Of a stretch of DNA of 64,000 nucleotides, positions 24,701 to 64,000 are shown piece after piece. How positions within the stretch are numbered: the stretch's first letter is position 1; each line of letters begins with the position of its first letter. Source of the stretch: Macrostomum lignano (taxonomy: Eukaryota); assembly GCA_002269645.1 (NCBI GenBank), contig NIVC01001639.1:192202-256201 (forward strand). Reading direction: 5' to 3'. The translations under genes and the position numbers were made by a program. Under the pieces are notes generated by a model, which saw only the letters and a program-made list of their open reading frames with translations, ran no database searches and had not been told where the DNA came from.

Positions 24701-27655
24701 CATTCATGGATGAAGGGATCTATGATCTAACTCCCTTAGTGCCTATATGGTAAGCACTGCTGACCATAGACAAATAATCCATTGTTGTGCTCCACACTAT
24801 AGTAACATACCTACGCTACGCCTCCTCTTTTTCACATAGTTATCAAGTGAATTATTTTCAAGACAAAAGATATCCTTCTTAGTGGACTTTTATGACCTCA
24901 GATGACAGTGATGCAGATCCGGGAACCAATCGGAGCATTCAATGACGTGAAGATCGTTCCATTGCTCTTCCCCCAATGCAGAGGCGAATTTCAGTCGGCT
25001 GGCCGAGCTGCGCAAAGTGGCGATATCGCAGGAGCTGCAGCAGAAGATCAGCAGACCGATGGGAGCGGCGGACAATCTAAGAAAAGTGGAACGAGGTGCG
25101 GAATTCTACGAATTTGTGTTTTTTGTCGTAAAATTATTGTGTCTCGTGGTTATTACGAGTATGTCTATAGGATTGCGTGTGTTTATGATTATTACAAGGG
25201 TGTCCAGGGTGATTATGAGTGTGTCCATGATGATTATGAATGTGTCCATGATGATTATGAGTGTGTCCATGATGATTATGAGTGTGTCCATGATGATTCT
25301 CAGCAAGTTCGAAAATTTATTATCGCAGAATCGGAGATCAAGTCTCTGACCTACCGGGACCCGGAGGTGGAGCAGGCTGAGAGGCTGTACGCCTCCGTCC
25401 AGTCCCAGCTGCGCGGCGGGCACTACGCAGGCTGCCAGGAGGGCAGGCAGCTGCCCGTGCACAAGCCAAATGCTGAAGCAACAGTCAAGGACCTCAATCC
25501 TGCCTGGCCAAAGACTCCGGCTCAGACTAATGCGCAGCAGCTGCCGAAAGCCACCGTGCCACAGGCCCCATTGCCTCAGCAGCAGCAGGTGCCACAGGCC
25601 CCATTGCCTCAGCAGCAGCAGGTGCCACAGGCCCCATTGCCTCAGCAGCAGCAGGTGCCACAGGCCCCATTGCCTCAGCAGCAGCAGGTGCCACAGGCCC
25701 CATTGCCTCAGCAGCAGCAGGTGCCACAGGCTCGATTGCCTCAGCAGCAGCAGGTGCCACAGGCCCCATTGCCTCAGCAGCAGCAGGTGCCACAGGCTCC
25801 ATTGCCTCAGCAGCAAGTACACCAGCCGCAACAACAGCAGCAGCAGCGGCTTCAGAGACAGCGACAAAGACCACAACCTCAGCAGCAGATGCAACCTCAG
25901 CAGCAGCAGATGCAACCTCAGCAGCAGCAGATGCAACCTCAGCAGCAGCAGATGCAACCTCAGCAGCAGCAGATGCAACCACAGCAGCAGCAGATGCAAC
26001 CACAGCAGCAGCAGATGCAACCTCAGCATCAGATGCAACCTCAGCATCAGATGCAACCTCAGCATCAGATGCAACCTCAGCATCAGATGCAACCTCAGCA
26101 TCAGATGCAACCTCAGCATCAGATGCAACCTCAGCATCAGATGCAACCTCAGCATCAGATGCAACCTCAGCAGCAGCAGATGAAACCACAACAGCAGCAG
26201 ATGCAACCACAACAGCAGCAGATGCAACCACAGCAGCAGCAGATGCAACCACAGCAGAAGATGCAACCACAGCAGAAGATGCAACCACAACAGCAGCAGA
26301 TGCAACCACAGCAGCAGCAGATGCAACCACAGCAGCAGCAGATGAAACCACAGCAGCAGCAGATGAAACCACAGCAGCAGCAGATGCAACCACAGCAGCA
26401 GCAGATGCAACCACAGCGGCAGCAGATGCAACCACAGCAGCAGCAGATGAAACCACAGCAGCAGCAGATGCAACCACAGCAGCAGCAGATGCAACCACAG
26501 CAGCAGCAGATGCAACCACAACAGCAGCAGATGCAACCACAGCAGCAGCAGATGCAACCACAACAGCAGCAGATGCAACCACAGCAGCAGCAGATGCAAC
26601 CACAAAAGCATCAGATCCATCTTCAGCCGCAGCAGCAGATGCAACCACATCAGCAGATGAAACCACAGCAGCAGCAGATGAAACCACAGCAGCAGCAGAT
26701 GAAACCACAGGAGCAGCAGATGCAACCACAGCAGCAGATGAAACCACAGGAGCAGCAGATGCAACCACAGCAGCAGATGCAACCACAGCAGCAGCAGATG
26801 CAACCACAGCGGCAGCAAATTCAGAGCCAAAATGCGGGAGCACAGCATCAGATTCAGCTGCATCAGCAGGCTCAGTTGCAGCCGCAAATGCAGAATCAGT
26901 TTGGGCAGTCCGCACAGCAAATGCCGCAGCATGCTCAACCAGCTTATCCGCAGCAACAGTCTCCAACAAAGGCATTGCAGAATCAAGCACCGACTGAGCA
27001 GCAATATCAAATGAAACAGAGCACTTCTCAGCTTCAGATGCAGCCAAAAAAGCAGTTGCAGCCCCAGCCCCAACAATCGAATCAGTGGTCGGAGACGCAG
27101 CAAACTGGTACTGGGCACACGACTGCGCAGATCTCGCAGGCTTCTTCGCAGCAGCAACCGCAGACACAGCAGTGGCGTCAGCCGCAGCAGCAGCAGCAGC
27201 AGCAACCTCAGACTCAGCAGTGGGGTCAGCCGCAGCAGCAGCAGCAACCACAGACTCAGCAGTGGGGTCAGCCGCAGCAGCAGCAGCAACCACAGACTCA
27301 GCAGTGGGGTCAGCCGCAGCAGCAGAAGCAGCCTCAGACTCAGCAGTGGGGTCAGCCGCAGCAGCAGCAGCCTCAGACTCAGCAGTGGGGTCAGGCGCAG
27401 CAGCAGCAGCAACCACAGACTCAGCAGTGGGGTCAGCCGCAGCAGCAGCAGCCTCAGACTCAGCAGTGGGGTCAGCCGCAGCAGCAGCAGCCTCAGACTC
27501 AGCAGTGGGGTCAGCGACAGCAGCAGCAGCAGCCTCAGACTCAGCAGTGGGGTCAGCCGCAGCAGCAGCAGCCTCAGACTCAGCAGTGGGGTCAGCCGCA
27601 GCAGCAGCAGCAGCCTCAGACTCAGCAGTGGGGTCAGCGACAGCAGAACCCATAG
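18758..27655 (+). CDS. Kettin/titin-like protein with 5 I-set Ig domains and a long Gln-rich tail, ~1532 aa; exons 18758-19007, 19661-19799, 20399-20812, 20898-21002, 21335-21881, 22215-22516, 23001-23214, 23563-23749, 24982-25095, 25329-27655
   Basis: Repeated I-set motifs (PPRF/PQF, WFKDG/WFKNG, D.G.Y.C.A.N) separated by kettin-type linkers (GVVTRTQLP...RLEE). Splice phases are consistent throughout (4599 nt) if intron 8 uses a GC donor at 23750. Further 5' exons are not excluded. Confidence 0.8.
19020..19510. repeat. 24-bp minisatellite (GAGGGTAGGGCATGGACTGGACCA)n in Ig-gene intron 1
   Basis: Tandem units start ~10 bp after the donor site. Confidence 0.95.
19985..20227 (-). mobile_element. 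tRNA-derived SINE
   Basis: The minus strand reads GGGGGTGCCGTAGCCCAGTGG (A box) and GGCTCAATTCC (B box). The body TTTGGGGCTGAATTGGAATCT...GGCCTTAAGGGCCAACCCC...AAGTGTACATGCCTAAC.ATAAATAAAGTTAGGGCCGCT matches the copy at 32834. Confidence 0.85.
22005..22128. repeat. Degenerate interstitial telomere-like (CCCTAA)n tract
   Basis: CCCTAA/CCCTAG variants inside an intron of the Ig gene. Confidence 0.8.
22595..22925. repeat. 27-bp minisatellite (CCTAGCCACACCCACCTCACTCCCCTG)n
   Basis: Tandem units in an intron. Confidence 0.9.
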
Positions 27656-46187: not shown

Positions 46188-46275
46188 CAAGGGTGTCGCC
46201 ACGTGGGGGGGGGATGGGGATCATGTCCCCCCCCCCCCCGTGAAAGTCAATATTTTGCTTCAGGGCGACAAATAT
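46188..46275. mobile_element. Left part of a small hAT-like MITE interrupted by the LTR element (right part 57955-58120)
   Basis: Left end CAAGGGTGTCGCCA; right end TGTGACGCCCCTG at ~58108-58120 (reverse complement CAGGGGCGTCACA). The flanks match at only 5 of 8 positions. Confidence 0.4.
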
Positions 46276-47139
46276 TGATGTGTTCCTTATTACCCGACTT
46301 TCGATAATCAAGGAACAATCACTTCTAGCTCAACAGCTAGGCAACCCAGTAAGTCAAACGAAGGTATTCAATTACCTTTAATCCGGATTTGAATTTCTTG
46401 AGTAGTTCTCGCTAGGAACTTGTCAGTAGATCTCGTAGATCAGGCGCCTTGATTCTTCAGTTGCTCTGGTCCTGGTTCCTCTTGTACTTCCGATAAGTTC
46501 TTCCGGCCGGTATCTTCCGTCAGGACCAATCAGAGGCCTCGTAGCAACAATGGGTACCCTGCGCCAAACTGCGGTCTAAATTAAGCCTCCTTCTTCTAGC
46601 AGTGCCTCTATGCACTCTAGGTATAGCTCCGGAAACCACTGATAGTCCTCTAAGATCTATCAGGGGCAGTCCTTCTGGAGACTGCAACCAATGGAGTCTA
46701 AACAGACTCAAGAGTCTCAACAGACTCAATTAGACTCAAGTCTCAATAGACTTGAGCGAGACGTCTCTAACACAACGGGCGCAAATAAGGAAGGCTTACC
46801 GCAACAACTCGACCGAGTCTCGATTGACTTGGTAGATCAGGAAGTCCTCCTAAGGCTTCCTCTTCGGAGCGCTCCTCTTCCGTGGGGAGAATGGCTCCGG
46901 TACCGCTTCAGATCGCTTGTATTTATAGACAAGTTTTTGATCCAAAATAGTATCATGACAATTCACGTGTTGCGCTAAAAGGGGAAAATGGCTCATGGCG
47001 TATTATTCTGGTAACATCTTTTTCTGGTAGCGTGATTCATTCAAAGCTTAGGCGCACATGCGTGTACTTACTTACTTATAGTAGTATTATACGATTATCT
47101 TCTTTTTTCCTTTTTTAACGGGAGGTAGAACACTCTACA
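46276..47139 (-). repeat. 3' LTR (864 bp)
   Basis: Direct repeat of 57087-57950; no differences seen by eye, and both copies give identical ORF-track translations. Confidence 0.97.
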
Positions 47140-47142
47140 AAA

Positions 47143-47154
47143 TCTCCCTTTTTT
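47143..47154 (-). other. Polypurine tract AAAAAAGGGAGA
   Basis: Purine run 3 nt upstream of the 3' LTR on the element strand. Confidence 0.85.
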
Positions 47155-47381
47155 ACGAAAAAACTCGTCCCGAGTTTTAACAATGAAATAAAAATCTTGG
47201 GTAATTGAATTATTCCATACTTTAACTTTAAATTGGTTACATAATTCTCTTTATTAACATATATGCACGTAATATACATTGTGTGTTAATAAAGGTTAGT
47301 GGTGTTGAGTCCACGCTCAGTTAAAGTTAATCATGTCTTCTGCCGGGGATACCTGCTGTCCTCGCGCTGCTGCCGAGGCAT

Positions 47382-48014
47382 TCAGCCGAAGCTTGTCCTG
47401 AGCAGGCTGCTCACCTGATGCGTGGTTCGCGCCACCAGGGATGCCACTGCCCAGTACAGCGACTGAAACTTAGTGAATCGCGGATCCTCGGTCCGCTCCA
47501 GCAAAAGCAGATAGGCCTCTATGGTCGTAAGCGGTTCTGCTGTACGCACCATAGTCCTGGCGATGTCTAGTAACCACCGCCAGTCGGCCTGATGCTGAAG
47601 CGGCCATGGCCACGTTCGTACGGCGACGGCCAGCTGTTCCAGGGTTAGCTCATCCGGCTCCGCCAGCGTTAGCTCCGGTACGGCGAGCATCGGTGCCAGT
47701 AGTACGGATGCTGTGTTGGACAGCGGAGCCAGGCACACGGTGCACGTCATGATGTCTCGTGCACCGTACCGCTGAAGACAGCTGAAACACACCCAATGCC
47801 GATTTGAACAGAGTCGTACATTGGGCTGGTCGCCGCAAAGGGCACATTGGACCCGCGGTCTGCGACAGACGGGGCAGGCGGTAAGGATCGTCACGTCGCC
47901 AATTTCTCGCGCCCGCTCGTCGCAGGGGAAGCACACCTGGTGCCCCCATTCACAAGTCGGGAGCATCGGCTCCCGTGCCTCGAGGCAGCAGGGGCAGGTA
48001 TCCATCTCGGTCAT
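47382..48014 (-). CDS. Accessory double-RING protein B, 210 aa
   Basis: CPCC..C.WGH..C..C..CPVC followed by CALC..C..RH..C..C..CTVC gives two tandem RING-like Cys/His arrays. The ATG is directly preceded by CCCACAG, a possible splice acceptor. Confidence 0.8.
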   Translation of the reverse strand: MTEMDTCPCCLEAREPMLPTCEWGHQVCFPCDERAREIGDVTILTACPVCRRPRVQCALCGDQPNVRLCSNRHWVCFSCLQRYGARDIMTCTVCLAPLSNTASVLLAPMLAVPELTLAEPDELTLEQLAVAVRTWPWPLQHQADWRWLLDIARTMVRTAEPLTTIEAYLLLLERTEDPRFTKFQSLYWAVASLVARTTHQVSSLLRTSFG

Positions 48015-48084
48015 CTGTGGGCGATAGGTATAGGTATAGTTAGAATGATTGAGGATTATTCAAGATACGTAACAAGCATATGTT

Positions 48085-48753
48085 CTATCGGTGAGACCTA
48101 AAAAGCCAAATAAAATAGCTACGTGAGAGCACTAATCGTTTAAGCGCGTGGCAGTATACGTGTAGCGTCCAGTGAAATGATTCGTGGTCATGCAAAAACT
48201 GCCGCAACCGTCGCTCAATCTCCAAGGGTGACATATGACGCAAAAATCCTTGATTTCTATGAGCATATAATAGTAGCTGTCGTCGCGACCGCTGAACGAA
48301 GCGAGGTACAGGCCAAAACTCCAGCCGCCGTTCGATACTCATAGCGGTTAAGGTGTGCATAGTGTAAACGGATAAACAACGCGCTGGGTCAGGTATAATC
48401 CGACACCATTTCTTAAAAGTGTTTTCGCGGGGCATACTGTTACATAAGGGGCATCCTATAATGCCCCTACTAGCGGTTTGCTTCAAACAGTGCATGCAAA
48501 TAAAATGTTGGTGGTTACAATATTGAAACGTGCGCCAAGAATAACAATAGGCACATTGTCGCAAACTATCTCTACAGAGGGGACAACTCTGCCAGGGCTG
48601 AATATAGTGTGAATCACTTAAACATTGTCCGCAAACTTTATGTCCATTGATGCAAATAGTCGGTGGCTTGACAGCCAAGTCATCAGTTAAACATATCGGG
48701 CAGTCATATAGCTGCTGAGGCTGGGGCGCCTGTTTTGACAGTGCGTTGCCCAT
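48085..48753 (-). CDS. Accessory double-RING protein A, 222 aa, with N-terminal myristoylation motif
   Basis: The first ATG (48753) gives MGNALSK; the ORF-track start at 48765 is a TTG. CPIC..C.NGH..C..C..CPLC then CAYC..C..QH..C..C..CPLC; same layout as protein B. Confidence 0.8.
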   Translation of the reverse strand: MGNALSKQAPQPQQLYDCPICLTDDLAVKPPTICINGHKVCGQCLSDSHYIQPWQSCPLCRDSLRQCAYCYSWRTFQYCNHQHFICMHCLKQTASRGIIGCPLCNSMPRENTFKKWCRIIPDPARCLSVYTMHTLTAMSIERRLEFWPVPRFVQRSRRQLLLYAHRNQGFLRHMSPLEIERRLRQFLHDHESFHWTLHVYCHALKRLVLSRSYFIWLFRSHR

Positions 48754-48873: not shown

Positions 48874-51800
48874 CTAGCGTGGTCGTAGGTTGTAGCCATG
48901 TGGCTGGCTCACATCTGTCGTTTGAGTCTCCTCGTGCTTCGTCGCGATGTGGCGGTTCGTTGAACGCGTGCGATCAGCGTTGTCTAATGTCGGTAGAAAC
49001 GTCGCTGTGTCAGTGTTGATCTTCTTTAGTCGATGAATGTGTACGTAGAACTGGTGCTGATGTGGATCTTGTACATTAGCCAGGCGTGCCGTTGTTGGTG
49101 ACGTTAGTTGGACCACTCGATAGGGTCCTTTGTACTTCTGTGCATGTTTATGCGTCTGCTGTGGCGGGTAGTGTAGGTAGACGATGTCGCCGGCCGTCAG
49201 GGTTGTCGATCTCGCGTCGTTGCCGGTGGTCAGAGCCACCTGGTTGTCAATGTTGTGCTTGGCGATCTTCCATGCGAGGTGTAGTTGCGTGACGAATTTC
49301 TGAATGGAAGTCGGTACTTCCACGTACTGCGATGGTAGCAATTGCTGTGCGAGCAGATTCGGCGGTTGGAAGTCTCGTCCAAACATTAGGAAGAATGGCG
49401 TATTGTCCGTTGATCGATGAATAGCGCTGTTGTAGGCCATTGTTACAGATTGCAGGTAGATGATCCAGTCTTCCGGCTGTTGGTGCGCGAAATGTGTAAT
49501 CATCTCGTGCAGGTTGCGGTGAAACCGTTCAACCATGTTTGCCTTCGGATTGTAGGTCGATGTGTAGATCTGCGTAATGTTGAGAATCCTTACGACTTGC
49601 TGAAACAGTTGCGATGTAAACTGCGATCCGTTGTCCGATGTGAGGTTCTTCGGCGTGCCGTACTTGCAAATGATTTCGTTGAAGAAACTCATTGCCACTG
49701 TCTGAGCTGTGATGTCCGGTATCGGTATGGCGATAGCAAACTTCGAGAAGATATCCAAGGCGGTTAGAATGTAGGTGTAGGCGATGCCCTGGAGACAGCT
49801 CGGTGGTAGCGGTCCGGTGATGTCGATGCTTAGACAGTCCATTGTAGTCGACTTCGGAATGGACTGTAGCTGCGGTTTCTGTCGTCGTCCTGTCTTTGAT
49901 GCAGCACATGAATGGCAGTTGTTGCAATACTGCTTGATGTCGCCGTACATAGTTGGCCAAAAGTAGTATTGTTCCACTCTCGCGATGGTCTTTGCTGCCG
50001 ACAGGTGTCCAGCGAGTGGGTTGTCGTGTAGCTCGTTGAGAATTGCTTGCCGAAACGAATATGGTATGTAGATCTTGGGTTTATTGTCGCTCATCCAGTA
50101 GAGCCGTGACTTATTGATTGTTAGGTGTTGTCGTTGCTTGCGTAGGAATTTTCGTTCCATGGGACTGAGTTTGATGTTCTTGTCGTCGTCTTTAACCGCT
50201 TGGTAGAAGTTGTCGCGCTCGGTTTCATCCACCAACTCCTTGATGTTAGGGATTGGATGAATGGCGTTGACTTCATAGGCTCTTGACAGGGCGTCCGCGG
50301 CTTTGTTGGTAATTCCTGGTTTGTAGACGAGTTTGTAGTTGTAATCCTGGATCTTGAGTGTCATTCTGATGAGTCGGTTGTTGGTCTGTCCTTTTGTAGT
50401 TACGACGTAGGTCAATGGTGCATGATCCGTGCGTACTATCGTCTGTATTGGAGAACCATAGATGTAGTAATGAAACTGTCGCAGGGCGAACAAGACTCCT
50501 AGTAGCTCTCGTTCCGTAGCTGACCACTTTGTTTCATTTGGTTTGAGTGCTCGACTGACGTAGGCAATAGGTCGTTCCTTCTTGTCCTCGGTTTCCTGTA
50601 GTAGGACTGCTCCGAGTCCCGTTCCTGAGGCGTCTGTCTCGATGATGAAGGGCTTGTCGAAGTCCGGATGCTGTAGCAGTGCGTCTGATGTCAGCTGTCG
50701 TTTGATTTCGTCGAAACTTTCCTGTTGTCTCTGTGTCCAGTTGTCTTGCTTCCATTTGTCGAACTTGAGCAGGTCGTACAGTGGCTTTGCTGTCTTTGCG
50801 AAGTTAGGTAAGAACTTCCTGAAGTATTGCGCAAGTCCAAGGAATGATTGGACCTTCGTTATACTGGTTGGCGTAGGAAACTTCTTCACCTTTTCCACGT
50901 TGTCTGGGTCCGGTGAGATTCCTTTGGCTGTCACCTGATGTCCCAGGTAACGCACGTTGTCTCGGAAGAATTTGCATTTAGTTGGTTGTAGCTTCAGACC
51001 TTGGCGTTGAATGAGCGCTAGGGCCTTCTCCGTAGCTTCGTAGAGTCGCTCGAAATCCTCTCCGTAGGCTAAAATGTCGTCGACATAGTGCAGCAGGTTC
51101 GTGCATCCTGCTAGCATGTATGCTGTTAGTCGACTCATCGTTGCTGGGCTGTTGCTAAGTCCCATCGGCGATCGATTGTACTCGTATACTTGTCCATTGT
51201 AGGTTTTGAAAGCCGTGTACTGTCGTGACTCTTTCTCGATTTCAATTTGCCAAAATCCATGACGTAGGTCGAACACCGTGAACAATTTTGCCGTGTTGAG
51301 CTTTGCTAGTAGTTCGGAGATCTTCGGTAGGCTTTGCTGATCCGTCGGTATGTACTTGTTCAACAGTCTGAAGTCGCATACGAGTCGTCTTTCGTTTGTC
51401 TCCTTCTTCTGTACCAGTAGGCACGGTGAGGAGTAAGCCGAAATAGCTTTGCTGATGATGCCGTGCTTTAGCATTTTATCGATGATTTCGTCAAAGTGTT
51501 GTTGCAGATGCTTGGCGATCGGGTACGGCTTGCACTGAATTGGTTCCGTGTGCGGCAGAAGTTTGATTTCCTGTTTGATGTCCTTGGCTCGTCCGATGTC
51601 GTAATCATGATGGCAGAAGGCTTCGTTGTACTTCCACAACAGCTGTCGAACTTTCCTCTTTTGCTGTTCCGTAATCGGGCTGTCATCCAAATTGATCTTC
51701 TTTTGAAATTCTTCCTCTGTTAGTCGTGGAGTCGCTTGTTCAATCAGCATAACCGATGCTTGGGTGTTGAGATGACCGATGCACATTCCTTGTCGTAGAT

Positions 51801-54800
51801 GAACCGTTTCTGTGTTCGGGTTGAAGATTTGTACTGGCAGTTGCTTATCCTTTGCAACCAGCACTAGTGCCGTAGGCATCATGATTTGATGTTTTGCCGT
51901 GACTCTCCTGTGTGGATCAAATATCATTGCTTCATCTGCCGCGCTGGTCGTTTTCGCTCTGACCCAGCATGCGCTTTCAGGCTGGATAATGACATCTTGC
52001 TGCAGAGTTACTTTCGGTAGTACTCGAATCTGGTTGATCAGCGGTTGCTCCACCGTGTCGATCCTAAACGTTTGCTTGTTGAAGTCGAAGGTCAATGGTA
52101 GTTGAAGCTGCTTGAACGTGTCGATTCCAACGATGACGTCTTGGTTTGGTAGTCTGTCGATGATGTACGTCGGGACCGTCAGCTGTTTATTAGCAATTTT
52201 CAAGTCGATATCTGCTTTTCCTAGGATGTTGAGTGAATGTCCTCCTGCTCCTGCAACTGCGATTGCTGCTGGTCGTACCGCGAGTCGTAGCTTGTTGCAT
52301 AATTGTTGCGAGATGACTGTGATCGAGCTGCCTGAATCCAGTAGTGCTCGACATGGCAAGTTGTTGACAATGACCTGAGCCATTGCTTTGCCAATCTCGG
52401 CGTGTAGCGTACAGACGTAGTTTTCCGGCCATTTTGGCTCGTGCTGTTCTGCTTGATAGTTGGGTGGTTGTATCCTTGGTGCCGTTGGTGTTGTCGGAAT
52501 CGATGGATATAGCCGCGTTGCTAGTGTCGGTTGCCCTTGAACCTCACAATGTGCAGTTTCTGTTAGTTCTAAACTGTTGTCGCTTTCCGTTGTCGTTCTT
52601 TGCATTATGGCATTCACTGTCTTCTTAGCTCTTGGACAAGTTTGACTGAAGCACCGTACGATCGATGAAATGATGAAGATTGCCGTGACAATCCACACAA
52701 TGCAAGCACCGTAGAAGATGAATCCTTGATAGAGACTGCCTCTTCCATTGAGCAGCTCCCAGAAGCTATTTGTCCAAAATGATTTGATGGCGCTGTCCAT
52801 TGAAACAAGGACGGGAAATCTTCCTGTCCCGGTTCCTTTGTCCTTTCTTGTGAACAGCTGGTGAATCATCTTGCGTTGGGTGATGAACGCTTGCAAGAAG
52901 TCGTTGATCGTCCATCCTGGTGTTATCTCGTCAAGTTGGATATCGGCGAATGGCGTATACTTCGTTCTGTTGAATCGGATTTTCAAATCCTCCATGTCGT
53001 AGTTTTCGTCGACGATTACTTCCGGTTCTGTGACGTTTGCTGTCGTTCCAGTTGTTTTGATGACGTGTAGTGCATTGTCCAGTTGATAGTAGTTTACTGC
53101 CGTGGTGCAAGGTCTCGGTATTGCGGTGCCAACGATGATGTTGTGTACCGTGTCCAAGAATCCCTGAATTCGTTTTCCTTCGTAGAACGCTTCAATCCTT
53201 GGCTTATCGTAGCAGGTTGTTGACGTGTTTGACGGCAAGATGTTAAAGTGCTGTATCGGCGTGCACTTGTATATCAACAGATGCTCGTATATTGGAACTG
53301 CCAAAACGTTCGTCATTCCGGTGATTTTACGAAAAGTCATCGTAGGGTTGACATAGTAGTTTTGTCTGGCATAATTTAAGTTGATTGCGTGCATTTTGCA
53401 AGTTAGCTGGACCAGTGTTCGATGCAAGTGGTTTAACTGGTTGTGTAGATTGTGATCCAAAGCCGTTATCTTTGCTGACAACAGCCGGTTTGACACCAGT
53501 TTGGGACGTTCGATGTCACGTCGTCTTCTATTCTGTTTTTCTTGTTGCTGATACGTTCCATTGATGATTGCCAAGAAGGTTTGTTTGTCTTCATCCTTTA
53601 CGTAGACTGGTATCTCTTGTTCCGAGATGAATAGTGTCTTGTCTGTATCCTTGCATTTCAGTTTTTGCTCGACTGGTTTCTTTTGAAACGTCAGTGCCAA
53701 GTCTCCTGACTTTGCCAAAAACGTATTTGACAGTAGTCCTCCTTCAACTGTGTGATACTTTTGAAGCTTGCAGTCAATTTCCGGCTCAACTTCCCACGCG
53801 AAGAAGTATTGTCGTGATTTGTACGGTTCCTCATAGTGTGATTGTGCTCTGTGCTCAATCTGCCATCGATAGTCTTGATGATATGTTGGACTCAGTGGTA
53901 GACTGTGTAGTTCTTCCTTCCGTAGAATCGGCGTTGGACACCATCCTTCACTGTATCGACATTCGCTTAGTTGCAGCTGTAACGATTCCATTTTCTCGTA
54001 CGGATTGTAGTAGAATGGAATATTTCTGATCAAGTAGCTGTTGCGTGCCATATATTCTTTCCATTTTCCGAAGAAGTGAATATATCGACCGTTGGCTGAA
54101 TTCTTTGTTCTGAACAGCTGTGCGTTGCCGACCTTCTCATCTGGTTCCAGTTCACCATCCTTTGAAAATAGTGTTTGATTCCATTGTAGGCATTCCGCGT
54201 GCGACACATGTAGCTCATGTTGTTTAAATCGGATCCGGTTCCATTGTCCGCGCCAAACTTTTTCCACCAGGTGCTTGTCTCTGAAGCATACTATCCCGTG
54301 TTGTCGATGCTTCTTGATGTTAGCCTTGTAGAGATCGAGTGTAATCTTCTTTGGTTTTGTCTGGTTTGTCTTGAAGTAACTGCATTTGATGTCGGTTGGT
54401 ATCTTGTAGATCATCGGTTGGATATGCGCATCCGTTGGACAAATCATTGGCTTTTCCGTTGCCGTTGCTTTGGCGACTACTGCTATCAGTAGTATCACGA
54501 TGATCCAGAATAGCCAGTTTTTCCACTTCTTGGATTTTGCCGTTGTCCTTGCTGGCATTGGCTGCGATCGCCATTCGTTATCTTCCATGTCCGCATCATA
54601 TTCTTTCGGTTGTTCCATTGGCTGATCCAGGCGGAAGGCTTCTGATTCGCTTTGCTTTTTGGTTATTTCATTATCTTCGTCTGCGGCTTCTTCCGATGTT
54701 TCCGTTGTTTCACTCCATTGCGTTTGGTATCTTTTCTCTGTCTTGTAGTCGACCGTTTGAATATAGGCTTCACCATTTCGTTTGTATCGGATCTCGTAGC

Positions 54801-56370
54801 ATTCGTCGCTGTCGGAACTCGGCTTTTCTTTCACCTGTTCTTTTTCCATTTCTTCATCTTTCCATTGTATTTCGTAGCCTTGATCGCTGTCGGAACTTAG
54901 ATTCTCCGCTCTCGGTTCTTCCTGCATTCCTCTTTCGGCTTGGTAGTCGTTCGTGTCATCACGCACCTCGCAGTCGTGGTCGTTGCCGTAACTTCTACAT
55001 TCTTCTTCTTCTTTCATTTCTTTGTCTTTCATGCTCGTTTTGTCGTCATCCACTGTTGTCGATTCATAGTTGTTTTCTTCGCCGGTTTTCATCTTTTCTT
55101 CGTTGCCGATGTCGCTCTCCGCCTCCTCCCTTGTCTTGTGATTTACTTTCTTCCTGTTTTCTCTGCTGTCTCCGGTGGTCTCTTTTAATTTGATCATTTC
55201 GGTTTCATTCGTCTCTTCTGTGTTGTCAGTGTTGTCCTCGTGCGTCGTCTTCTTTTCGATCAAGCTGATGTCAAGTTCCGGGACTGTGAAGTCCATTTCC
55301 AAGTCGTCAATTGTGAACACTTGCTGTTCTTGCTGTTCATTTTCCGGTGTGTACGTGATGGCATTCGCGTATCGTGGCATTGCTTGCGTCGGCTGTCTTT
55401 GTGTGTATCTGACGTTGCGTGGCCTGTAGCCATTACTTCTGAAGCGGCCTTCGTTTCCGAAGCGGCCATCATTTCCGGAGCGGTCATTATTTCCGAAGCG
55501 TCTATCATTTCCGAAGCGTCTCATTCCTTGTTGTTGGCGATTTTGATAGTGCTGCCATGGTTTCTGCGGCTTCTGATTGTTGAATATCTGTCGCGGCTTG
55601 TCGTATCTTGTTGACCAATGAGGACAATTAATCTGATAATGTCCTTCTTGTCCGCAGTAGTAACATCTGGCTGAGGCTTGTTCATTTCGTCTTTTTTGTT
55701 CGGCGATAGCAGCTGTCTGGTGCTGCATTAACTTGTTTAGTTGCTGCGTCAGTTTCTGCACTTCATTGTTGCCTGTCGTCATTAATGGGGCACTGGCTTC
55801 CCATTGCATTCCGCAACGCAAAAGGTCTTCTTCGGTTTCGATATTTTCACGCAAAAGTCTATCCCGAAGTGACGGCTGTGCGTTGTTTATTACGTGCAGG
55901 ATGAGGTTTTGTTCACGATCCATCAATCGTTGTCTTTCTCTGGCGGCCAATTCTGCCGCTCCCAGTGGTGGTTGGTCCGCAGCTTGCAGCGGTGGCTGAT
56001 GCAGTGCCTTAATTATCTGGCGGATATCGTCCACAAAGGCGAGGAAGGATTCTGTTGCTTGCATCCTTCTGTTATGCAACTTGTGCAGCAGCACTGATCT
56101 GTTTGTGCCGCAACGGTTGAAATGCGCGCGCAGTTGAATGATTAGTGCTGGATAATTTTGCTGTGTTGCCGCATCCAGCTTGCCGTAAATTTCTCGCGCA
56201 GTACCTTGGAGAAGAGGTGGCAGCAGCTGTGCCTTCTCTGGATTTTGTAGGTTGTATTCCCTACATACCAGGTCAAAATGGTCGACAAATGTGTTAAAAT
56301 CTTTCTCCATCGAGAAAGTACCGACCGTTTCTTTGATGTCTCTGTGTACCGTTGGATTGCGCCGCGCCAT
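48874..56370 (-). CDS. Gag-Env-Pol polyprotein, 2498 aa
   Basis: Gag with CCHC knuckle CYYCGQEGHYQINC (55624-55665); hydrophobic signal WLFWIIVILLIAVVAKATA (~54461-54517); Cys-rich ectodomain with N-glycosylation sequons and furin-like RRRR (53518-53529); TM segment (~52660-52725); protease LLDSGS (~52327-52344); RT YVDD (51076-51087); RNase H TDASGTGLGAVL; integrase HHCC, DDE and GPY motifs. Confidence 0.95.
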   Translation of the reverse strand: MARRNPTVHRDIKETVGTFSMEKDFNTFVDHFDLVCREYNLQNPEKAQLLPPLLQGTAREIYGKLDAATQQNYPALIIQLRAHFNRCGTNRSVLLHKLHNRRMQATESFLAFVDDIRQIIKALHQPPLQAADQPPLGAAELAARERQRLMDREQNLILHVINNAQPSLRDRLLRENIETEEDLLRCGMQWEASAPLMTTGNNEVQKLTQQLNKLMQHQTAAIAEQKRRNEQASARCYYCGQEGHYQINCPHWSTRYDKPRQIFNNQKPQKPWQHYQNRQQQGMRRFGNDRRFGNNDRSGNDGRFGNEGRFRSNGYRPRNVRYTQRQPTQAMPRYANAITYTPENEQQEQQVFTIDDLEMDFTVPELDISLIEKKTTHEDNTDNTEETNETEMIKLKETTGDSRENRKKVNHKTREEAESDIGNEEKMKTGEENNYESTTVDDDKTSMKDKEMKEEEECRSYGNDHDCEVRDDTNDYQAERGMQEEPRAENLSSDSDQGYEIQWKDEEMEKEQVKEKPSSDSDECYEIRYKRNGEAYIQTVDYKTEKRYQTQWSETTETSEEAADEDNEITKKQSESEAFRLDQPMEQPKEYDADMEDNEWRSQPMPARTTAKSKKWKNWLFWIIVILLIAVVAKATATEKPMICPTDAHIQPMIYKIPTDIKCSYFKTNQTKPKKITLDLYKANIKKHRQHGIVCFRDKHLVEKVWRGQWNRIRFKQHELHVSHAECLQWNQTLFSKDGELEPDEKVGNAQLFRTKNSANGRYIHFFGKWKEYMARNSYLIRNIPFYYNPYEKMESLQLQLSECRYSEGWCPTPILRKEELHSLPLSPTYHQDYRWQIEHRAQSHYEEPYKSRQYFFAWEVEPEIDCKLQKYHTVEGGLLSNTFLAKSGDLALTFQKKPVEQKLKCKDTDKTLFISEQEIPVYVKDEDKQTFLAIINGTYQQQEKQNRRRRDIERPKLVSNRLLSAKITALDHNLHNQLNHLHRTLVQLTCKMHAINLNYARQNYYVNPTMTFRKITGMTNVLAVPIYEHLLIYKCTPIQHFNILPSNTSTTCYDKPRIEAFYEGKRIQGFLDTVHNIIVGTAIPRPCTTAVNYYQLDNALHVIKTTGTTANVTEPEVIVDENYDMEDLKIRFNRTKYTPFADIQLDEITPGWTINDFLQAFITQRKMIHQLFTRKDKGTGTGRFPVLVSMDSAIKSFWTNSFWELLNGRGSLYQGFIFYGACIVWIVTAIFIISSIVRCFSQTCPRAKKTVNAIMQRTTTESDNSLELTETAHCEVQGQPTLATRLYPSIPTTPTAPRIQPPNYQAEQHEPKWPENYVCTLHAEIGKAMAQVIVNNLPCRALLDSGSSITVISQQLCNKLRLAVRPAAIAVAGAGGHSLNILGKADIDLKIANKQLTVPTYIIDRLPNQDVIVGIDTFKQLQLPLTFDFNKQTFRIDTVEQPLINQIRVLPKVTLQQDVIIQPESACWVRAKTTSAADEAMIFDPHRRVTAKHQIMMPTALVLVAKDKQLPVQIFNPNTETVHLRQGMCIGHLNTQASVMLIEQATPRLTEEEFQKKINLDDSPITEQQKRKVRQLLWKYNEAFCHHDYDIGRAKDIKQEIKLLPHTEPIQCKPYPIAKHLQQHFDEIIDKMLKHGIISKAISAYSSPCLLVQKKETNERRLVCDFRLLNKYIPTDQQSLPKISELLAKLNTAKLFTVFDLRHGFWQIEIEKESRQYTAFKTYNGQVYEYNRSPMGLSNSPATMSRLTAYMLAGCTNLLHYVDDILAYGEDFERLYEATEKALALIQRQGLKLQPTKCKFFRDNVRYLGHQVTAKGISPDPDNVEKVKKFPTPTSITKVQSFLGLAQYFRKFLPNFAKTAKPLYDLLKFDKWKQDNWTQRQQESFDEIKRQLTSDALLQHPDFDKPFIIETDASGTGLGAVLLQETEDKKERPIAYVSRALKPNETKWSATERELLGVLFALRQFHYYIYGSPIQTIVRTDHAPLTYVVTTKGQTNNRLIRMTLKIQDYNYKLVYKPGITNKAADALSRAYEVNAIHPIPNIKELVDETERDNFYQAVKDDDKNIKLSPMERKFLRKQRQHLTINKSRLYWMSDNKPKIYIPYSFRQAILNELHDNPLAGHLSAAKTIARVEQYYFWPTMYGDIKQYCNNCHSCAASKTGRRQKPQLQSIPKSTTMDCLSIDITGPLPPSCLQGIAYTYILTALDIFSKFAIAIPIPDITAQTVAMSFFNEIICKYGTPKNLTSDNGSQFTSQLFQQVVRILNITQIYTSTYNPKANMVERFHRNLHEMITHFAHQQPEDWIIYLQSVTMAYNSAIHRSTDNTPFFLMFGRDFQPPNLLAQQLLPSQYVEVPTSIQKFVTQLHLAWKIAKHNIDNQVALTTGNDARSTTLTAGDIVYLHYPPQQTHKHAQKYKGPYRVVQLTSPTTARLANVQDPHQHQFYVHIHRLKKINTDTATFLPTLDNADRTRSTNRHIATKHEETQTTDVSQPHGYNLRPR

Positions 56371-57066
56371 GTTGTTGATAGGGTAGAACGGTAGTTCAAG
56401 ATCTGGATCGATTTGTAACGGATCGTCCAGTGTGGTGTTTGCCTCGGAATAAACCTCGACTGTAACGAATTGCCTTGTGGTGTCGATTTGTTATTCGCTG
56501 GCCTCGGATGCGGTGTGGCTTGCTGCCACTGGTTGTCCTCAAATGAACTTGTTCTGTTCGCTTGCTGATTTCGCACTTATGCGGCGTCCCGCAAAGTGTA
56601 TCTTCAAGTTGAAGTGGACTTGTCTTCTTGCTTTGCAAAGTCTTTCTTCTCTTCTTTGACTCTCTCTCTTTTGTCAATTAACTCTGCTCTCCACGAAGTT
56701 TCAATTAATTTCGGTTTTGTTTTAGTTTTTGTGCCGGCAAAATGTTTCAGTTATTTTTTGTTTGTTTTGCGTCGACGATTCTTTTTATTTTTGGTTTGTT
56801 TTCAGTGTACCGACGAAGTTAATTTCGGTTTTGTTTTAAACTCACACTTGCTCGAGCTCGTCAAAACAAAATTTTAACACGCGTGCTCAAACTGTACTCA
56901 AATTTGACAGGTGCTCAAACCTGTACACCAAATTTTACTCGAGTTTCAAAACGTAACGGACTTAAAAAGTGTTAACTCTAACACGTGCGCGCAAAATTAA
57001 TGAAGTCGCTCTGTCGTCACTTTACAATAGCTTGGCCAGGCTATTGCTCAAGGTTTGAGTAGTGCC

Positions 57067-57084
57067 GAGAGGGCGAGATCACCA
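57067..57084 (-). other. Primer-binding site TGGTGATCTCGCCCTCTC (tRNA-Trp-like by its TGGTGA start; assignment tentative)
   Basis: TGG begins 2 nt after the 5' LTR on the element strand. Confidence 0.75.
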
Positions 57085-57086
57085 AT

Positions 57087-57950
57087 TGATGTGTTCCTTA
57101 TTACCCGACTTTCGATAATCAAGGAACAATCACTTCTAGCTCAACAGCTAGGCAACCCAGTAAGTCAAACGAAGGTATTCAATTACCTTTAATCCGGATT
57201 TGAATTTCTTGAGTAGTTCTCGCTAGGAACTTGTCAGTAGATCTCGTAGATCAGGCGCCTTGATTCTTCAGTTGCTCTGGTCCTGGTTCCTCTTGTACTT
57301 CCGATAAGTTCTTCCGGCCGGTATCTTCCGTCAGGACCAATCAGAGGCCTCGTAGCAACAATGGGTACCCTGCGCCAAACTGCGGTCTAAATTAAGCCTC
57401 CTTCTTCTAGCAGTGCCTCTATGCACTCTAGGTATAGCTCCGGAAACCACTGATAGTCCTCTAAGATCTATCAGGGGCAGTCCTTCTGGAGACTGCAACC
57501 AATGGAGTCTAAACAGACTCAAGAGTCTCAACAGACTCAATTAGACTCAAGTCTCAATAGACTTGAGCGAGACGTCTCTAACACAACGGGCGCAAATAAG
57601 GAAGGCTTACCGCAACAACTCGACCGAGTCTCGATTGACTTGGTAGATCAGGAAGTCCTCCTAAGGCTTCCTCTTCGGAGCGCTCCTCTTCCGTGGGGAG
57701 AATGGCTCCGGTACCGCTTCAGATCGCTTGTATTTATAGACAAGTTTTTGATCCAAAATAGTATCATGACAATTCACGTGTTGCGCTAAAAGGGGAAAAT
57801 GGCTCATGGCGTATTATTCTGGTAACATCTTTTTCTGGTAGCGTGATTCATTCAAAGCTTAGGCGCACATGCGTGTACTTACTTACTTATAGTAGTATTA
57901 TACGATTATCTTCTTTTTTCCTTTTTTAACGGGAGGTAGAACACTCTACA
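57087..57950 (-). repeat. 5' LTR (864 bp)
   Basis: Reads TGTAGAGTG...CACATCA on the element strand; repeat of 46276-47139. Confidence 0.97.
57732..57738 (-). promoter_or_regulatory. Candidate LTR TATA box (TATAAAT)
   Basis: Motif ~210 nt into the 5' LTR on the element strand; positional plausibility only. Confidence 0.4.
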
Positions 57951-58696
57951 ATATATAGCGCCTGCGGCACCAAACACGAGTTCCTGCAGCGCAAAAAATG
58001 CCTGCGACGCCAAATGAGCGCTGACAACACCGATTCTAAAAATAATGTAAAATGTTAAAATGTATAATTCTTGCGGCTTAATTTGTTCCCCACCATAAAA
58101 TCAATCTTGTGACGCCCCTGCCACAACAGTACATGTAACTCACAAACCTTCTGTCGTAAATGCACATGCAAGTCGTATATAGCCAGTAGAAGTGACTAAA
58201 AAGAGAATCAAAGTTGTAGATGGGGTTGGTACATGTTTGTTAGCCCGACAAACGACGAGAGTGTAGGCCTGAAGCCATAACCATGCCTAGACTCATTCGT
58301 CTTTTTCTCTTTTGATTTCCATTTACCTTAAGATATTGAGTTTAAATACTTTTAGTATTTTTAACATTAATTTACTTGCACTTCTTATTCATACAGCGAA
58401 AATATTTTTACTTCCTTTTAAATATTAGTTGACGTATGCTCCGGTATCTGAGGCTTACTCTATGTTTCAAGTAAATAATTGTCGTAAAACACGAAAATGT
58501 TCATGTATTACTACCACATTAAAGACAGTGTTGCCTAGCCAATCAACAGCCGCCATGCAAAACACGCTACGAATTTCAACTTAAATGCGTCAACCGAAAG
58601 AAATCTAGATATTTCTTTACCAATTCCCCTCCTCGTATTTTGCGCTAGTGTGTTGTCCTGTTAAAACTATATTTTGATTGAAATTCTTACGTTAAT

Positions 58697-60469
58697 ATGT
58701 GGCTGTCGAGCTTTTTGGCATTTGCTCTGCTTGCTCTCGCATGCGGTGAAGTTTACTTCAAGGAGGAGTTTTTAGATGGTAAGTTAGTTCTCGCTCTGAC
58801 GTTTATTTTGTTTAGATTCTCAAATTCCCTTGTGTTGCTGCAATACTAGAATAGGGCATTGTCTTGTTGGTTTTCTTCATTTCAACCATATCAGAATATT
58901 AAAGTAACTAAAAATAGTATTGAAATCATTCCATTCTTTTTAACTTTGCACATTCAAGCAGTTAAAATAACCCCCTTGTGTTAGCTTTGCATTTTGTTCT
59001 AAAAGAATAAACTGTGGTTACTGGTTTACTTTTTTATAGTTTTTGAAAGATAATTCATTAAAAAGGCTTCTATTATTGAGTATGAGAGAGAAAGGAAGTA
59101 TAGGTTTCTAGCTAGCTACTTTAATTTAATTGTAACATATTATAAGATTGTTTTATAACTTCACAATTTTTTTGTTTCCTTAAAGACTATTTGTATATAT
59201 ATATATTGCCTATCTTTACATTTTTCTATGTTTCTCCTAATGTAAAATCCTTTGATTTAAATATTTATTTTTTTCTTTTAATTTTAATTATATGCTTTGC
59301 TAATTTGTCTTCACAAAATATTTATTTCAGAGTCATGGAAGGATCGGTGGGTAGAGTCAACCTACAAGGGTAATGACCAAGGCAAATGGGAATGGACTGC
59401 TGGCAAGTTCTACAATGATGCTGAAAAGGACAAGGGAATAAAAACCTCCCAGGATGCCAAATTTTATGGCATCAGTGCCAAGTTCAACTCTCCATTCTCC
59501 AATGCTGGCAAGACTCTGGTGATCCAATTCCAGGTCAAGCATGAGCAGAACATTGACTGCGGTGGTGGCTATGTCAAAGTCCTTGGCAGCGATGTTGACC
59601 AGAAGAACTTCCACGGCGACACACCCTACAAGATCATGTTTGGTCCTGATATCTGCGGCCCTGGCACTAAGAAGGTGCACGTTATCTTCAACTACAAGGG
59701 CAAGAATTTGCTCACCAAGAAGGAGATTCGCTGCAAGGATGACGAGCTAAGCCACCTGTACACCCTGATTGTGAAGCCTGACAACACCTACGAGGTGCTG
59801 ATTGACAACGAGCGAGCCGAAGGTGGAGAACTCGAGGCCGACTGGGACTTCCTGCCACCCAAGAAGATCAAGGATCCGGCCGCCAAGAAGCCAGACGACT
59901 GGGACGAGCGCGAGAAAATTGACGACCCGAACGACAAGAAGCCGGAGGACTGGGACAAGCCCAAGACCATCCCGGATCCCAAGGCCAAGAAGCCGGACGA
60001 CTGGGACGACGAGATGGACGGCGAATGGGAGCCGCCGATGATTGACAACCCGGACTACAAGGGCGACTGGAAGCCCAAGCAGATTGACAACCCGGCCTAC
60101 AAGGGCAAGTGGATCCACCCGGAGATTGACAACCCGGACTACTCGCCGGACCCCGAGCTGTACAAGTACACCGACATCGGCGCCATCGGCTTCGACCTGT
60201 GGCAGGTGAAATCTGGCTCCATCTTCGACAACGTCTTCGTTGGCGACGACCCGGCCGAGGCCAAGGCCTTCGCCGACGAGACCTTCAAGAAGACCGTCGA
60301 AGGCGAGAAGAAGATGAAGGAGAAGCAGGACGAGGAGGACAAGAAGAAGGCGGAGGAAGAGGAGAAGAAGCGCAAAGAGGAGGAGGAGAAGAAGAAGGCC
60401 GAGGAGGGCGACAAGAAGGAAGCGGACAAGAAGGAGGACGACAAGAAGGACACCAAGGACGAGCTGTAG
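58697..60469 (+). CDS. CALR: Calreticulin, 406 aa; exons 58697-58778 and 59331-60469
   Basis: Signal peptide MWLSSFLAFALLALACG, then EVYFKEEF. Motifs KHEQNIDCGGGYVK and IMFGPDICG; P-domain repeats (KPDDWD, GEWEPPMIDNPDYKG); acidic tail ending KDEL; phase-1 GT-AG intron. Confidence 0.97.
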
Positions 60470-62469
60470 AGAGCGGCTTCCGTTGCCTAGGGCCTCTGTA
60501 TTTGCGGTTGGGCGGCTGGCACTCCAACTAGTTTATAAATAGTTCTTAAATTTCAATTTCGAGCTCACGCAACAAAATTTTGGCTGAATAAATTGACACG
60601 CAAAACGGCATTTCCAGCGGCCCCGTGCAACTGCAACTCCCTCTGTCTGCTTTCCTGTGTCGAATAGCCATCTCTCTCTCGTACCGCACAATATTTGTCC
60701 CTATCCCGGCATAGATGTGGTAGAACTAATTACACCTGGTGGATCAGCTATTATCTATCGTTGTTATTAATAATACTCCCAATATAGTAAGTAGCTAGAC
60801 TTAATTAACGTTGCTTAATGATTTTTTACTCCTTTTCTCTCCATCCAGCGGACATTTTGTCACTCTGAGCCCCGACTGCTTGTTAGTTAAAAAGGGAAAG
60901 TTTTTTATACGTTCATTATTGTTATTTATTTGTTAGAATGATTCTAATTAATACACGCTTAAGCCTAATTTTTTGCACACATTTTTTGGTTGCAATCGGA
61001 GGCACAAGTTTCCATGCTTCACAATATAAAACCATAATTGCCACACTGATCCCAGGCCCATGCGCAATAATTGTGCCAATGCTAACCAAAATAAATGCCA
61101 TCCCGTTTAAAACTGGGTCTAGTAATAGCCATATTATTATATAGTAGCGCCCAGTCAACCAGGGGCTGCAATAATTACTTTTCTTATTTGTAATATTGAA
61201 ATCTATCGGAACTCACCCAGTGTCTTTGTTTGGCCACAACAAACCCCGCAATGATTTGTTTAAAACTTCCCGCTCCTTGCTCTGGTGTCATTTAAATAAA
61301 CCCAACCTTCTGTCTGTTTCCTTCGATTATATATCGACTATTTATGTTGTCACGTTGAGTAAATATATAATATCTCTGTTTTTTGGAACTCATTCTGTTA
61401 TGCGAAACTATGCTAAATAATAAATAAATAAATATGGAATGTTTAGAACAAATTAACTATGTTCAAAGATCTTACATACACAATCTCAAAGGTAATATAT
61501 GATATAATATATGAGTAATTATGTTATAGTCTAATTAGCGCGCAAAACAGCTATAAAGTGCTTGTAAACTACTGATCTCGAATTTGTCAGTAGTCTTGCC
61601 GCAACTTTTATTTCTACCAGATATCATCACTGGTTCTAGCTCGTAATACATGTAGCTTTACATGAAAAGACGAAGCAGAACTCTGAAAATTAGTGCTATT
61701 TTCGTGAAGTCAAAGAAAAAAGACTCGAATGAACTGCAACTATTTATTCTCTACTAATAGTAGAGCTTATAGAACCGCGTTTAGCAAACAAAATTGTTGA
61801 AACTGTTGGAATGCAGCTCAATCTTAGTGGTCCTACGTGTGCTGTGCATGTACAGTATGTGCTGGTCCGATCTATTTATAAAGACCAAGTTTCAAATTTG
61901 CATAAGAGAAAAAAGCACAGCAATTCTTCTTTCGGCAAAAAAGACGGCCAAGTCCGCGAAACTAAACTGTGCCAATTGCAAGTCATTCCAAGGCAAACAA
62001 CATTTTATTGGCACACTTTACAGCCTAAATTTATCCATTCTGATTCTCTCGCCGTCTGTCTCCTGTCAGCTCTAATTCACAGAAGTGTAGTGTGCAGGTG
62101 CAGGTGCGTTCATAAACTCAACTCTTGACACGCCTAAAAGGGGGCGGTTGTGCGCGAGTACGTGCGTCTACGAATACGTTACAGATTCATTATATGCAGA
62201 GAAATGCTAAAAAGCGAAACAGAAAAACACCCGAACACCGAGACAGCTATAAGCTCTATTTGCGCTTATAAACAGCTCGTCCTGTCTGCACACCAACTAT
62301 TAGCTAAAGTGTCAACTTTACTCTCCGTGGGTCTCTCAGTTAAACTGCAGAACTTTGATATACACCTATAACAGCACTGCTTAGTTGCTCAGCGACCTCC
62401 GAGTGTGACCCGATGCTGACCGACAGATCGATGTGAGTTCGTTTATAATACACAATTTTTTATTCCCCT

Positions 62470-64000
62470 TACAGGTGTATGTTTGATTCCCATGCAGATA
62501 TTTTGTTTACCCTGCAGATATCTGTTTGATTCCGCTGCAGATTAGCTGTTTGATTCCGCTGAGATAGCTGTTTGATTCCCCTACAGATATCTGTTTGATT
62601 CCCCTTACAGATATCTGTTTGATTCCCTTACAGATATCTGCTTGATTCCCCTACAGATATCTGCTTGATTCCGCTGCAGATATCTGCTTGATTCCCCTAC
62701 AGATATCTGTTTGATTCCCTCAGATATCTGTTTGATTCCCTACAGATATCTGTTTGATTCCCTACAGATATCTGTTTGATTCCCTACAGATATCTGTTTG
62801 ATTCCGCTGCAGATATCTGCTTGATTCCCTACAGATATCTGTTTGATTCCCCTACAGATATCTGCTTGATTCCGCTGCAGATATCTGTTTGATTCCCCTA
62901 CAGATATCTGCTTGATTCCGCTGCAGATATCTGTTTGATTCCCCTACAGATATCTGTTTGATTCCGCTGCAGATATCTGTTTGATTCCCTTACAGATATC
63001 TGCTTGATTCCGCTGCAGATATCTGTTTGATTCCCCTACAGATATCTGTTTGATATCTCTACAGATATCTGTTTGATTCCCTACAGATATCTGCTTGATT
63101 CCCTACAGATATCTGTTTGATTCCGCTGCAGATATCTGTTGATTCCCTACAGATATCTGTTTGATTCCCCTTACAGATATCTGCTGATTCCGCTGCAGAT
63201 ATCTGCTTGATTCCCCTACAGATATCTGCTTGATTCCCGCTACAGATATCTGTTGATTCCCTACAGATATCTGTTTGATTCCGCTGCAGATATCTGTTTG
63301 ATTCCCCTTACAGATATCTGCTTGATTCCCTACAGATATCTGTTTTGATTCCCCTACAGATATCTGCTTGATTCCCCTACAGATATCTGTTTGATTCCCT
63401 ACAGATATCTGTTTGATTCCCCTACAGATATCTCTCTGTTTGATTCCCCTACAGATATCTGTTTGATTCCCCTACAGATATCTGTTTGATTCCCCTACAG
63501 ATATCTGTTTGATTCCCCTACAGATATCTGTTTGATTCCCCTACAGATATCTGTTTGATTCCCCTACAGATATCTGTTTGATTCCCCTACAGATATCTGT
63601 TTGATTCCCCTACAGATATCTGTTTGATTCCCCTACAGATATCTGTTTGATTCCCCTACAGATATCTGTTTGATTCCCCTACAGATATCTGTTTGATTCC
63701 CTACAGATATCTGTTTGATTCCCCTACAGATATCTGTTTTGATTCCCCTACAGATATCTGTTTGATTCCCCTACAGATATCTGTTTGATTCCCCTACAGA
63801 TATCTGTTTGATTCCCCTACAGATATCTGTTTGATTCCCCTACAGATATCTGTTTGATTCCCCTACAGATATCTGTTTGATTCCCCTACAGATATCTGTT
63901 TGATTTCCCCTACAGATATCTGTTTGATTCCCCTACAGATATCTGTTTGATTCCCCTACAGATATCTGTTTGATTCCCTACAGATATCTGTTTGATTCCC
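62470..64000. repeat. ~24-bp satellite (CAGATATCTGTTTGATTCCCCTA)n running off the window end
   Basis: Tandem units with the palindromic core CAGATATCTG. Confidence 0.95.

Follow-up and report, generated by a model that had tools for sequence, protein, structure and literature searches.

Candidate ESCRT late-domain motifs in the Env tail of gag-env-pol retrotransposons of Macrostomum lignano

Comparison of ten env-bearing retrotransposon families of Macrostomum lignano shows that two short motifs, P[TS]AP (TSG101-type) and YPx[LI] (ALIX-type), are selectively kept in the predicted cytosolic tail of Env. One such element lies in the window, the 64,000-nucleotide stretch of contig NIVC01001639.1 analysed here, and its tail carries a PPxY-type motif as well. 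On balance, we think that the motifs probably act as ESCRT-recruiting late-domain signals, by which an enveloped gag-env-pol retrotransposon forms its particles or leaves the cell.

Architecture of the element

The window holds a single-ORF gag-env-pol Ty3/gypsy LTR retrotransposon with its LTRs, primer-binding site, purine tract and target duplication present. Its features are the following:

57087..57950 (-): 5' LTR, 864 bp, with TG...CA ends, 100% identical to the 3' LTR
57073..57084 (-): primer-binding site, a 12-mer
48874..56490 (-): single, uninterrupted gag-env-pol ORF, 2538 codons from stop to stop, 2497 from Met42
55618..56367 (-): Gag, a capsid-like region from Met42 and one CCHC zinc knuckle, N-terminal Gly absent
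54457..54513 (-): internal hydrophobic, signal-like helix closing the Gag part (residues 660-678, hydropathy 2.4)
52726..54450 (-): Env ectodomain, class III according to Foldseek on a predicted structure model
52669..52725 (-): Env transmembrane anchor (residues 1256-1274, hydropathy 2.4)
52432..52662 (-): low-complexity spacer from the Env anchor to the protease, the predicted Env cytosolic tail (77 residues, 1277-1353)
52606..52617 (-): VNAI, a possible protease site at residue 1292, 17 residues past the anchor helix
52498..52512 (-): LYPSI, YPxL/I-type (ALIX-type), also fitting a YxxPhi adaptor signal (residues 1327-1331)
52477..52488 (-): PTAP, P[TS]AP-type (TSG101-type; residues 1335-1338)
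52456..52467 (-): PPNY, PPxY-type (NEDD4/WW-type), family-specific (residues 1342-1345)
52120..52377 (-): aspartic protease, DSG at 52338 (Pfam PF13650, E 1.7e-9, residues 1372-1457)
49546..51411 (-): RT, RNase H and integrase (Pfam PF00078, PF17917/PF17919, PF17921, PF00665)
48085..48753 (-): accessory ORF 1, RING-like (Pfam zf-RING_2, E 1.7e-4, below cut-off)
47382..48014 (-): accessory ORF 2, RING-like paralogue of ORF 1 (Pfam Sina_RING, E 1.9e-4, below cut-off)
46276..47139 (-): 3' LTR, 864 bp, preceded by a purine tract at about 47143-47154
46272-46275 and 57951-57954: 4-bp target duplication ATAT

Pfam places the zinc knuckle at residues 276-291, RT at 1694-1853, RNase H at 1918-2050 and integrase at 2142-2315; Pol thus runs protease, RT, RNase H, integrase, which is the Ty3/gypsy order. 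The helix at residues 660-678 probably serves as a signal, and a comparable helix stands ahead of Env in seven of the seven sister families checked. Identical LTRs, together with at least 15 full-score identical copies of the motif stretch (the window's own included), point to a recent spread of the element; these copies were counted among 40 scored genomic matches to a 1.2-kb query around the motifs, all of them at least 91% identical. Over residues 1051-2538 (1488 residues), the frame matches a named Macrostomum lignano protein at 99% identity, and a word-indexed protein search returned only 2 matches, both near-identical. In one contig, mid-env follows directly on the end of the 5' LTR (57087 to 53697, with 3389 bases skipped and no splice-type ends), and this contig probably derives from an internally deleted copy.

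Around the element, a calreticulin gene (58700-60469, +; Pfam E 1.5e-85) lies in head-to-head orientation with the retrotransposon, its start some 750 bases away from the 5' LTR. A 919-codon open frame at 24896-27655 (+) consists mostly of glutamine-rich 21-base repeats, has no Pfam match and may be a minisatellite. Short tandem-repeat arrays, with units of 8-36 bases and some inverted pairs, are abundant at 1-38000 and 62400-64000.

For the Env ectodomain, we modelled the 575-residue segment between the two hydrophobic helices from a 30-row alignment (mean pLDDT 77, pTM 0.50). Every match listed by Foldseek in the PDB is a herpesvirus gB (best E 2.7e-20), with low whole-chain TM-scores of about 0.25 (0.23-0.32); in a viral structure library, nyami-, chu- and rhabdo-like glycoproteins were matched (best E 1e-24). 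Over all matches the whole-chain TM-scores are about 0.15-0.37, low values that we ascribe to the use of a monomer model for a protein with several conformations. Judged from this model, Env is of class III, gB-like type, with no single virus assigned. A search of the PDB with the Env sequence gave nothing significant (best E 0.66), and a Pfam Monjiviricetes_fusion match to the ectodomain, at E 8e-6, falls below the cut-off. A furin-type basic site lies at residues 988-991. In one clade (L095, L098, L099), the ectodomain has a mid-domain insertion of about 230-290 residues.

The two accessory ORFs lie between pol and the 3' LTR, contain six CxxC pairs each and are 25% identical to one another (E 1e-14); their nearest Atlas clusters are viral RING proteins, at weak similarity. 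ORF 1 has no late motif and opens with MG-x-x-x-S, like a myristoylation site and reminiscent of arenavirus Z. Both ORFs have homologues in the nearest sister family, and none were found in the stretches checked downstream of pol in two other clades. Public contigs contain joints that skip or replace some 1.2-1.3 kb of the RING region (47180-48492), and a catalogued M. lignano element is shorter by about 1.1 kb (PMC13524379). Some variants of the element seem to have fewer accessory ORFs.

Elements of this type have been published: GAG-ENV-POL Ty3/gypsy 'errantiviruses' with an HSV/gB-type Env are described in Platyhelminthes, Nematoda and Bryozoa by Chary and Hayashi (PMC13524379, which cites Sacco et al. 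2022). The window's element shares with them its gene order, gB-like Env, intact multicopy state and LTRs. Their Mlig_errantivirus_2, from Macrostomum lignano, has an ENV_HSV, 16 copies, LTRs of 863-864 bp and the same primer-binding 12-mer; matched by these table entries (PBS and LTR length) rather than by sequence, it is very probably the window's family. Its LTRs stand 9,727 bases apart, against 10,811 in the window's element, so that the copy listed would be a shorter variant.

The sequence-only reading had described three late-domain motifs within 19 residues between the Env membrane helix and the protease. Its residues and positions are borne out, the translation of ORF 48874-56490 being identical over the 20 residues quoted, and hydropathy and Pfam support an Env anchor upstream and a protease downstream. 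The motifs lie 52-67 residues past the end of the anchor helix (1256-1274) and 43-58 residues ahead of the catalytic Asp 1385 of the protease. From hydropathy, this stretch, which comes after the second hydrophobic helix and before Pol, should face the cytosol. PTAP, strict PPxY and LYPx[LI] occur once each in the whole 2538-codon frame. All three motifs came together in 12 of 200,000 shuffles of the spacer (about 80 residues) and in 36 of 200,000 shuffles of the surrounding proline-rich 30 residues; none of 20,000 whole-protein shuffles brought them within 30 residues of each other. Because the motifs were already known when the shuffling was done, the conservation tests weigh more.

Conservation of the motifs within and between families

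We compared ten env-bearing families from four clades, all of the same genome; the RT tree omits two of the ten, and the families are related rather than independent samples. Between clades, identity is 15-31% in the spacers and 20-35% in the proteases (8 families). P[TS]AP is nevertheless present in the spacer of 8/10 families (0.27 expected from shuffles) and YPx[LI] in 7/10 (0.39 expected), while PPxY is found in 1/10 (0.50 expected). With the window's family left out, the counts are 7/9, 6/9 and 0/9, respectively; by clade, they are 3/4 for P[TS]AP (P 6e-4), 3/4 for YPx[LI] (P 2e-3) and 1/4 for PPxY (P 0.41). The expectation that the motifs would be kept while their flanks drift thus holds for the first two and fails for PPxY. 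Likewise, the selection that the sequence-only reading saw behind the cluster is upheld for P[TS]AP and YPx[LI]; PPxY stays at chance level across families and the triple cluster is specific to one of them. It represents the most extreme form of a broader pattern, PTAP plus YPxL.

Outside the spacers, a single P[TS]AP occurs in 16,577 residues. ALIX-type sites need L or I before the tyrosine and P after it, whereas adaptor YxxPhi sites do not; both residues are present in all seven families that have YPx[LI]. The order of the motifs is not fixed: YP precedes PTAP in the window's family and follows it in the five other families with both, and the distance from motifs to protease shifts among families. 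The swapped order points to turnover. The fourth clade (L200, L191) has none of the three motifs in its open spacer.

PPxY is found instead in the Gag-Env linker, presumably cytosolic too, in three families, where it may be due to chance. The Gag part contains no late motif that is conserved between families, which leaves the tail as the main candidate site of ESCRT recruitment. Separately from the motifs, a Trp-Pro pair (52426-52431, -, in the window) lies 31-38 residues ahead of the protease Asp in three clades, in the window's element and eight other families; absent from the fourth clade, it may mark the N-terminal site of the protease.

Within the window's family, 90 overlapping locus records yielded 21 distinct spacer variants. 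YPSI is present in 21/21 of them and PTAP in 20/21; PPxY is also present in 21/21, with P, P and Y fixed and N, T, G or I at the free position. Amino-acid changes affect 1/10 motif positions vs 27/66 others, a difference that is not significant (P = 0.08), and silent changes are seen at 4/10 motif codons. PTAP is lost in two single copies (L062, L089), one of them belonging to the nearest sister family.

The sequence-only reading also held that the motifs had been relocated from Gag, and this finds no support: there is no sign that Gag ever contained them, and env-less elements give none. As controls we took 22 loci of 11 families with a protease and no Env match, which belong to distant clades and several of which have a broken gag. 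In their open frames up to 1.5 kb upstream of the protease, PTAP occurs in 0/11 families, YPx[LI] in 1/11 and PPxY in 0/11; scanning the final 450 bases in three frames gave 1, 2 and 0, respectively. No close env-less relative was found. L106 and L112, considered as an env-less sister lineage, turned out to be 5'-truncated pieces of an env-bearing clade. Beside the truncated gypsy piece of L112, open frames at 1043-2848 (-) resemble, by eye, an integrase and a chromodomain protein and seem to belong to a different mobile element. As for the late motifs of the tail, they may have been acquired together with the captured glycoprotein or have evolved at this site.

We also collected 127 database relatives, 75 of them Env-matched; after removal of 24 without a delimitable tail and of 2 close kin, 49 tails were left. 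They contain P[TS]AP in 5/49 (0.42 expected), YPx[LI] in 6/49 (1.28) and PPxY in 6/49 (0.92), a 5-12 fold enrichment. At least one motif is present in 14/49 tails, two in 3 and three in 0. Since 35/49 distant tails and one env-bearing clade have none, not every such element requires the signals. Decoys give a mostly flat picture: of 11 reorderings of P,T/S,A,P, only [TS]APP, which can overlap the motif, is seen more than once; PPxF, PPxH and PPxW occur 1, 0 and 0 times. Some other decoys are raised (PPxI, 5 vs 2.2; WPx[LI], 3 vs 0.8). In 24 Gag-Env linkers, we counted 0 P[TS]AP, 0 YPx[LI] and 1 PPxY.

Alternative readings and possible processing of the spacer

Tetrapeptides similar to VNAI follow the zinc knuckle (residue 375) and lie between RNase H and integrase (residue 2074). 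VNAI itself is kept in 21/21 family variants, but none of the 8 sister-family sequences checked has it in the spacer; we thus rejected the idea that these elements generally have a protease site at residue 1292. In the window's family, cleavage at this point may occur, and the motifs may accordingly sit on a released peptide rather than on mature Env. It is conceivable that they then act after cleavage, on a p6-like peptide or at the Pol N-terminus, in entry, endosomal escape or cytoplasmic transport. The resemblance of VNAI, 17 residues past the anchor, to the other two tetrapeptides and its constancy within the family speak for this; its absence from the sister sequences speaks against it, and we give the proposal only a slim chance. 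Retroviral proteases usually act after budding, so that cleavage is compatible with a budding role in any case.

Splicing of the motif cassette was also considered. The public gene model P0002 lacks residues 1315-1347, in coincidence with a 99-base GT...AG stretch (52449-52547). The evidence does not support this intron: P0002 has eight other gaps, and one contig bridges the stretch unspliced. The joint is absent from the 9 joints listed for 4 runs, whose RNA nature is a guess and whose contigs drop rare forms, so that a minor spliced form may exist. The cassette is missing in 0/106 overlapping genomic records with both anchors.

The more serious alternative, which we still hold to be unlikely, is that the motifs do bind ESCRT proteins or adaptors, yet route or degrade Env-Pol instead of cutting buds: YPSI would serve in endocytosis as a YxxPhi signal, PPxY in ubiquitination, and the whole in multivesicular-body sorting. 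Such sorting would limit the surface fusogen, or bring Env to Gag. The motifs do sit on the tail of a membrane protein, the same motifs drive endosomal sorting of membrane proteins, and YPSI does fit YxxPhi. Tyrosine motifs in the Env tails of MLV and MPMV control trafficking via clathrin adaptors (PMC1592117), and ALIX sorts the receptor PAR1 through a YPXnL motif (PMC3341166). However, the form conserved here is L/I-Y-P-x-L/I, paired with P[TS]AP, which is the pair of retroviral p6 (PMC10587442), and sending Pol to lysosomes would be costly. Sorting and budding can overlap if budding takes place into endosomes.

We give the least credence to chance matches in a proline-rich linker, or to a constraint unrelated to host proteins, such as protease site context or RNA structure. 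The spacer is rich in P and T, the families are not independent and the PPxY count across them is near the shuffled expectation, so that such an origin is plausible for PPNY alone. For PTAP and YPxL it is very unlikely, given the clade-level and decoy tests, the swapped order and the shifting distance to the protease. The silent changes at motif codons and the four different residues at the free PPxY position also argue against it.

A candidate budding route and its known relatives

Candidate partners are encoded in the host genome: a TSG101 UEV domain closely similar to its human counterpart (E 1e-44), ALIX-type V domains, and HECT domains taken as a class, whether or not of the WW-bearing NEDD4 type. 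The host UEV differs from the human one by two substitutions, Tyr to His and Phe to Val, at positions that we take to belong to the PTAP groove. Such partners are expected in any animal and only make the model possible.

In the budding reading that we favour, the polyprotein would be threaded twice through the ER membrane: the internal signal helix would direct Env into the ER lumen and the anchor would return the tail and Pol to the cytosol, leaving Gag and tail-Pol both cytosolic. Gag, which has no N-terminal glycine and hence no myristoyl site, would be tied to the membrane by the signal helix. As one frame encodes both, tails would be as numerous as Gag; Env-tail-Pol would be made 1:1 with Gag, and each Env trimer would display three tails where capsids gather. 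PTAP would then bind host TSG101 and LYPSI would bind ALIX, PPxY adding a NEDD4-type ligase in the window's family. ESCRT-III/VPS4 would sever the bud, either at the plasma membrane or into an endosome, the latter amounting to exosome-like release, after which the protease would free Pol and perhaps also the motif peptide, much like HIV p6. Of this scheme, the sequences show the order of the genes, both helices, the type of fold and selection for two of the motifs in the tail; ESCRT binding and budding are inferred. More tentatively, and with somewhat less than even confidence, we propose that these elements form enveloped particles in a manner unlike retroviruses. Gag-Env-Pol would be membrane-tethered at 1:1:1, and the tail of the fusion protein, not Gag or matrix, would recruit ESCRT and drag Pol into the bud, with motifs repeatedly gained, lost and reshuffled in one spacer across distant lineages.

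The R peptide of MLV and MPMV Env tails is removed by the viral protease, and these tails are not known to carry PTAP. The window's Env tail may be trimmed by a protease in the same way. Like theirs, it is short and has a tyrosine motif, MLV and MPMV having dileucine sorting signals in addition (PMC1592117); unlike their free C-termini, it continues into Pol. HIV-1 p6, with PTAP plus YPXnL, and other retroviral sites with PPxY offer the same motif classes, tightly grouped on a low-complexity peptide directly before the protease (PMC10587442, PMC2958808). In contrast to these Gag late domains, the window's peptide follows the Env anchor, some 600 luminal residues away from Gag, and is in frame with Pol without a frameshift; its late-domain role is a predicted one. 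Bluetongue virus NS3 has PSAP and PPxY on the cytosolic part of a membrane glycoprotein and aids non-lytic exit (PMC4452911, PMC6949946). NS3 is a non-structural protein of a non-enveloped dsRNA virus and no fusogen, whereas the window's motifs are on Env.

PMC3383448 describes ESCRT use by errantiviruses as unknown and points out an adaptor-binding motif in gypsy Gag. Late domains are treated as features of Gag and other structural proteins in passages of PMC8402826 on the subject, where retrotransposons go unmentioned. In the main text of PMC13524379, the terms ESCRT, late domain, cytoplasmic, budding, PTAP, PSAP, PPxY, ALIX, TSG101, RING and polyprotein have zero occurrences. Among the open-access papers listed, judged by title or abstract start, we found none that places late motifs on a retrotransposon Env tail; Sacco et al. 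2022 may treat such tails. The placement of selected ESCRT-type motifs on an Env tail thus appears to be unreported, although the element type itself is published.

TSG101- and ALIX-type motifs under selection are sequence evidence, beyond an intact env, that these elements deal with the membrane-scission machinery. They point to host genes that could be knocked down in this laboratory flatworm, in which the family has spread recently. If the favoured reading is true, late domains would extend to the tail of a structural fusion protein, and the motifs suggest a possible exit route from cells for envelope-carrying invertebrate retrotransposons.
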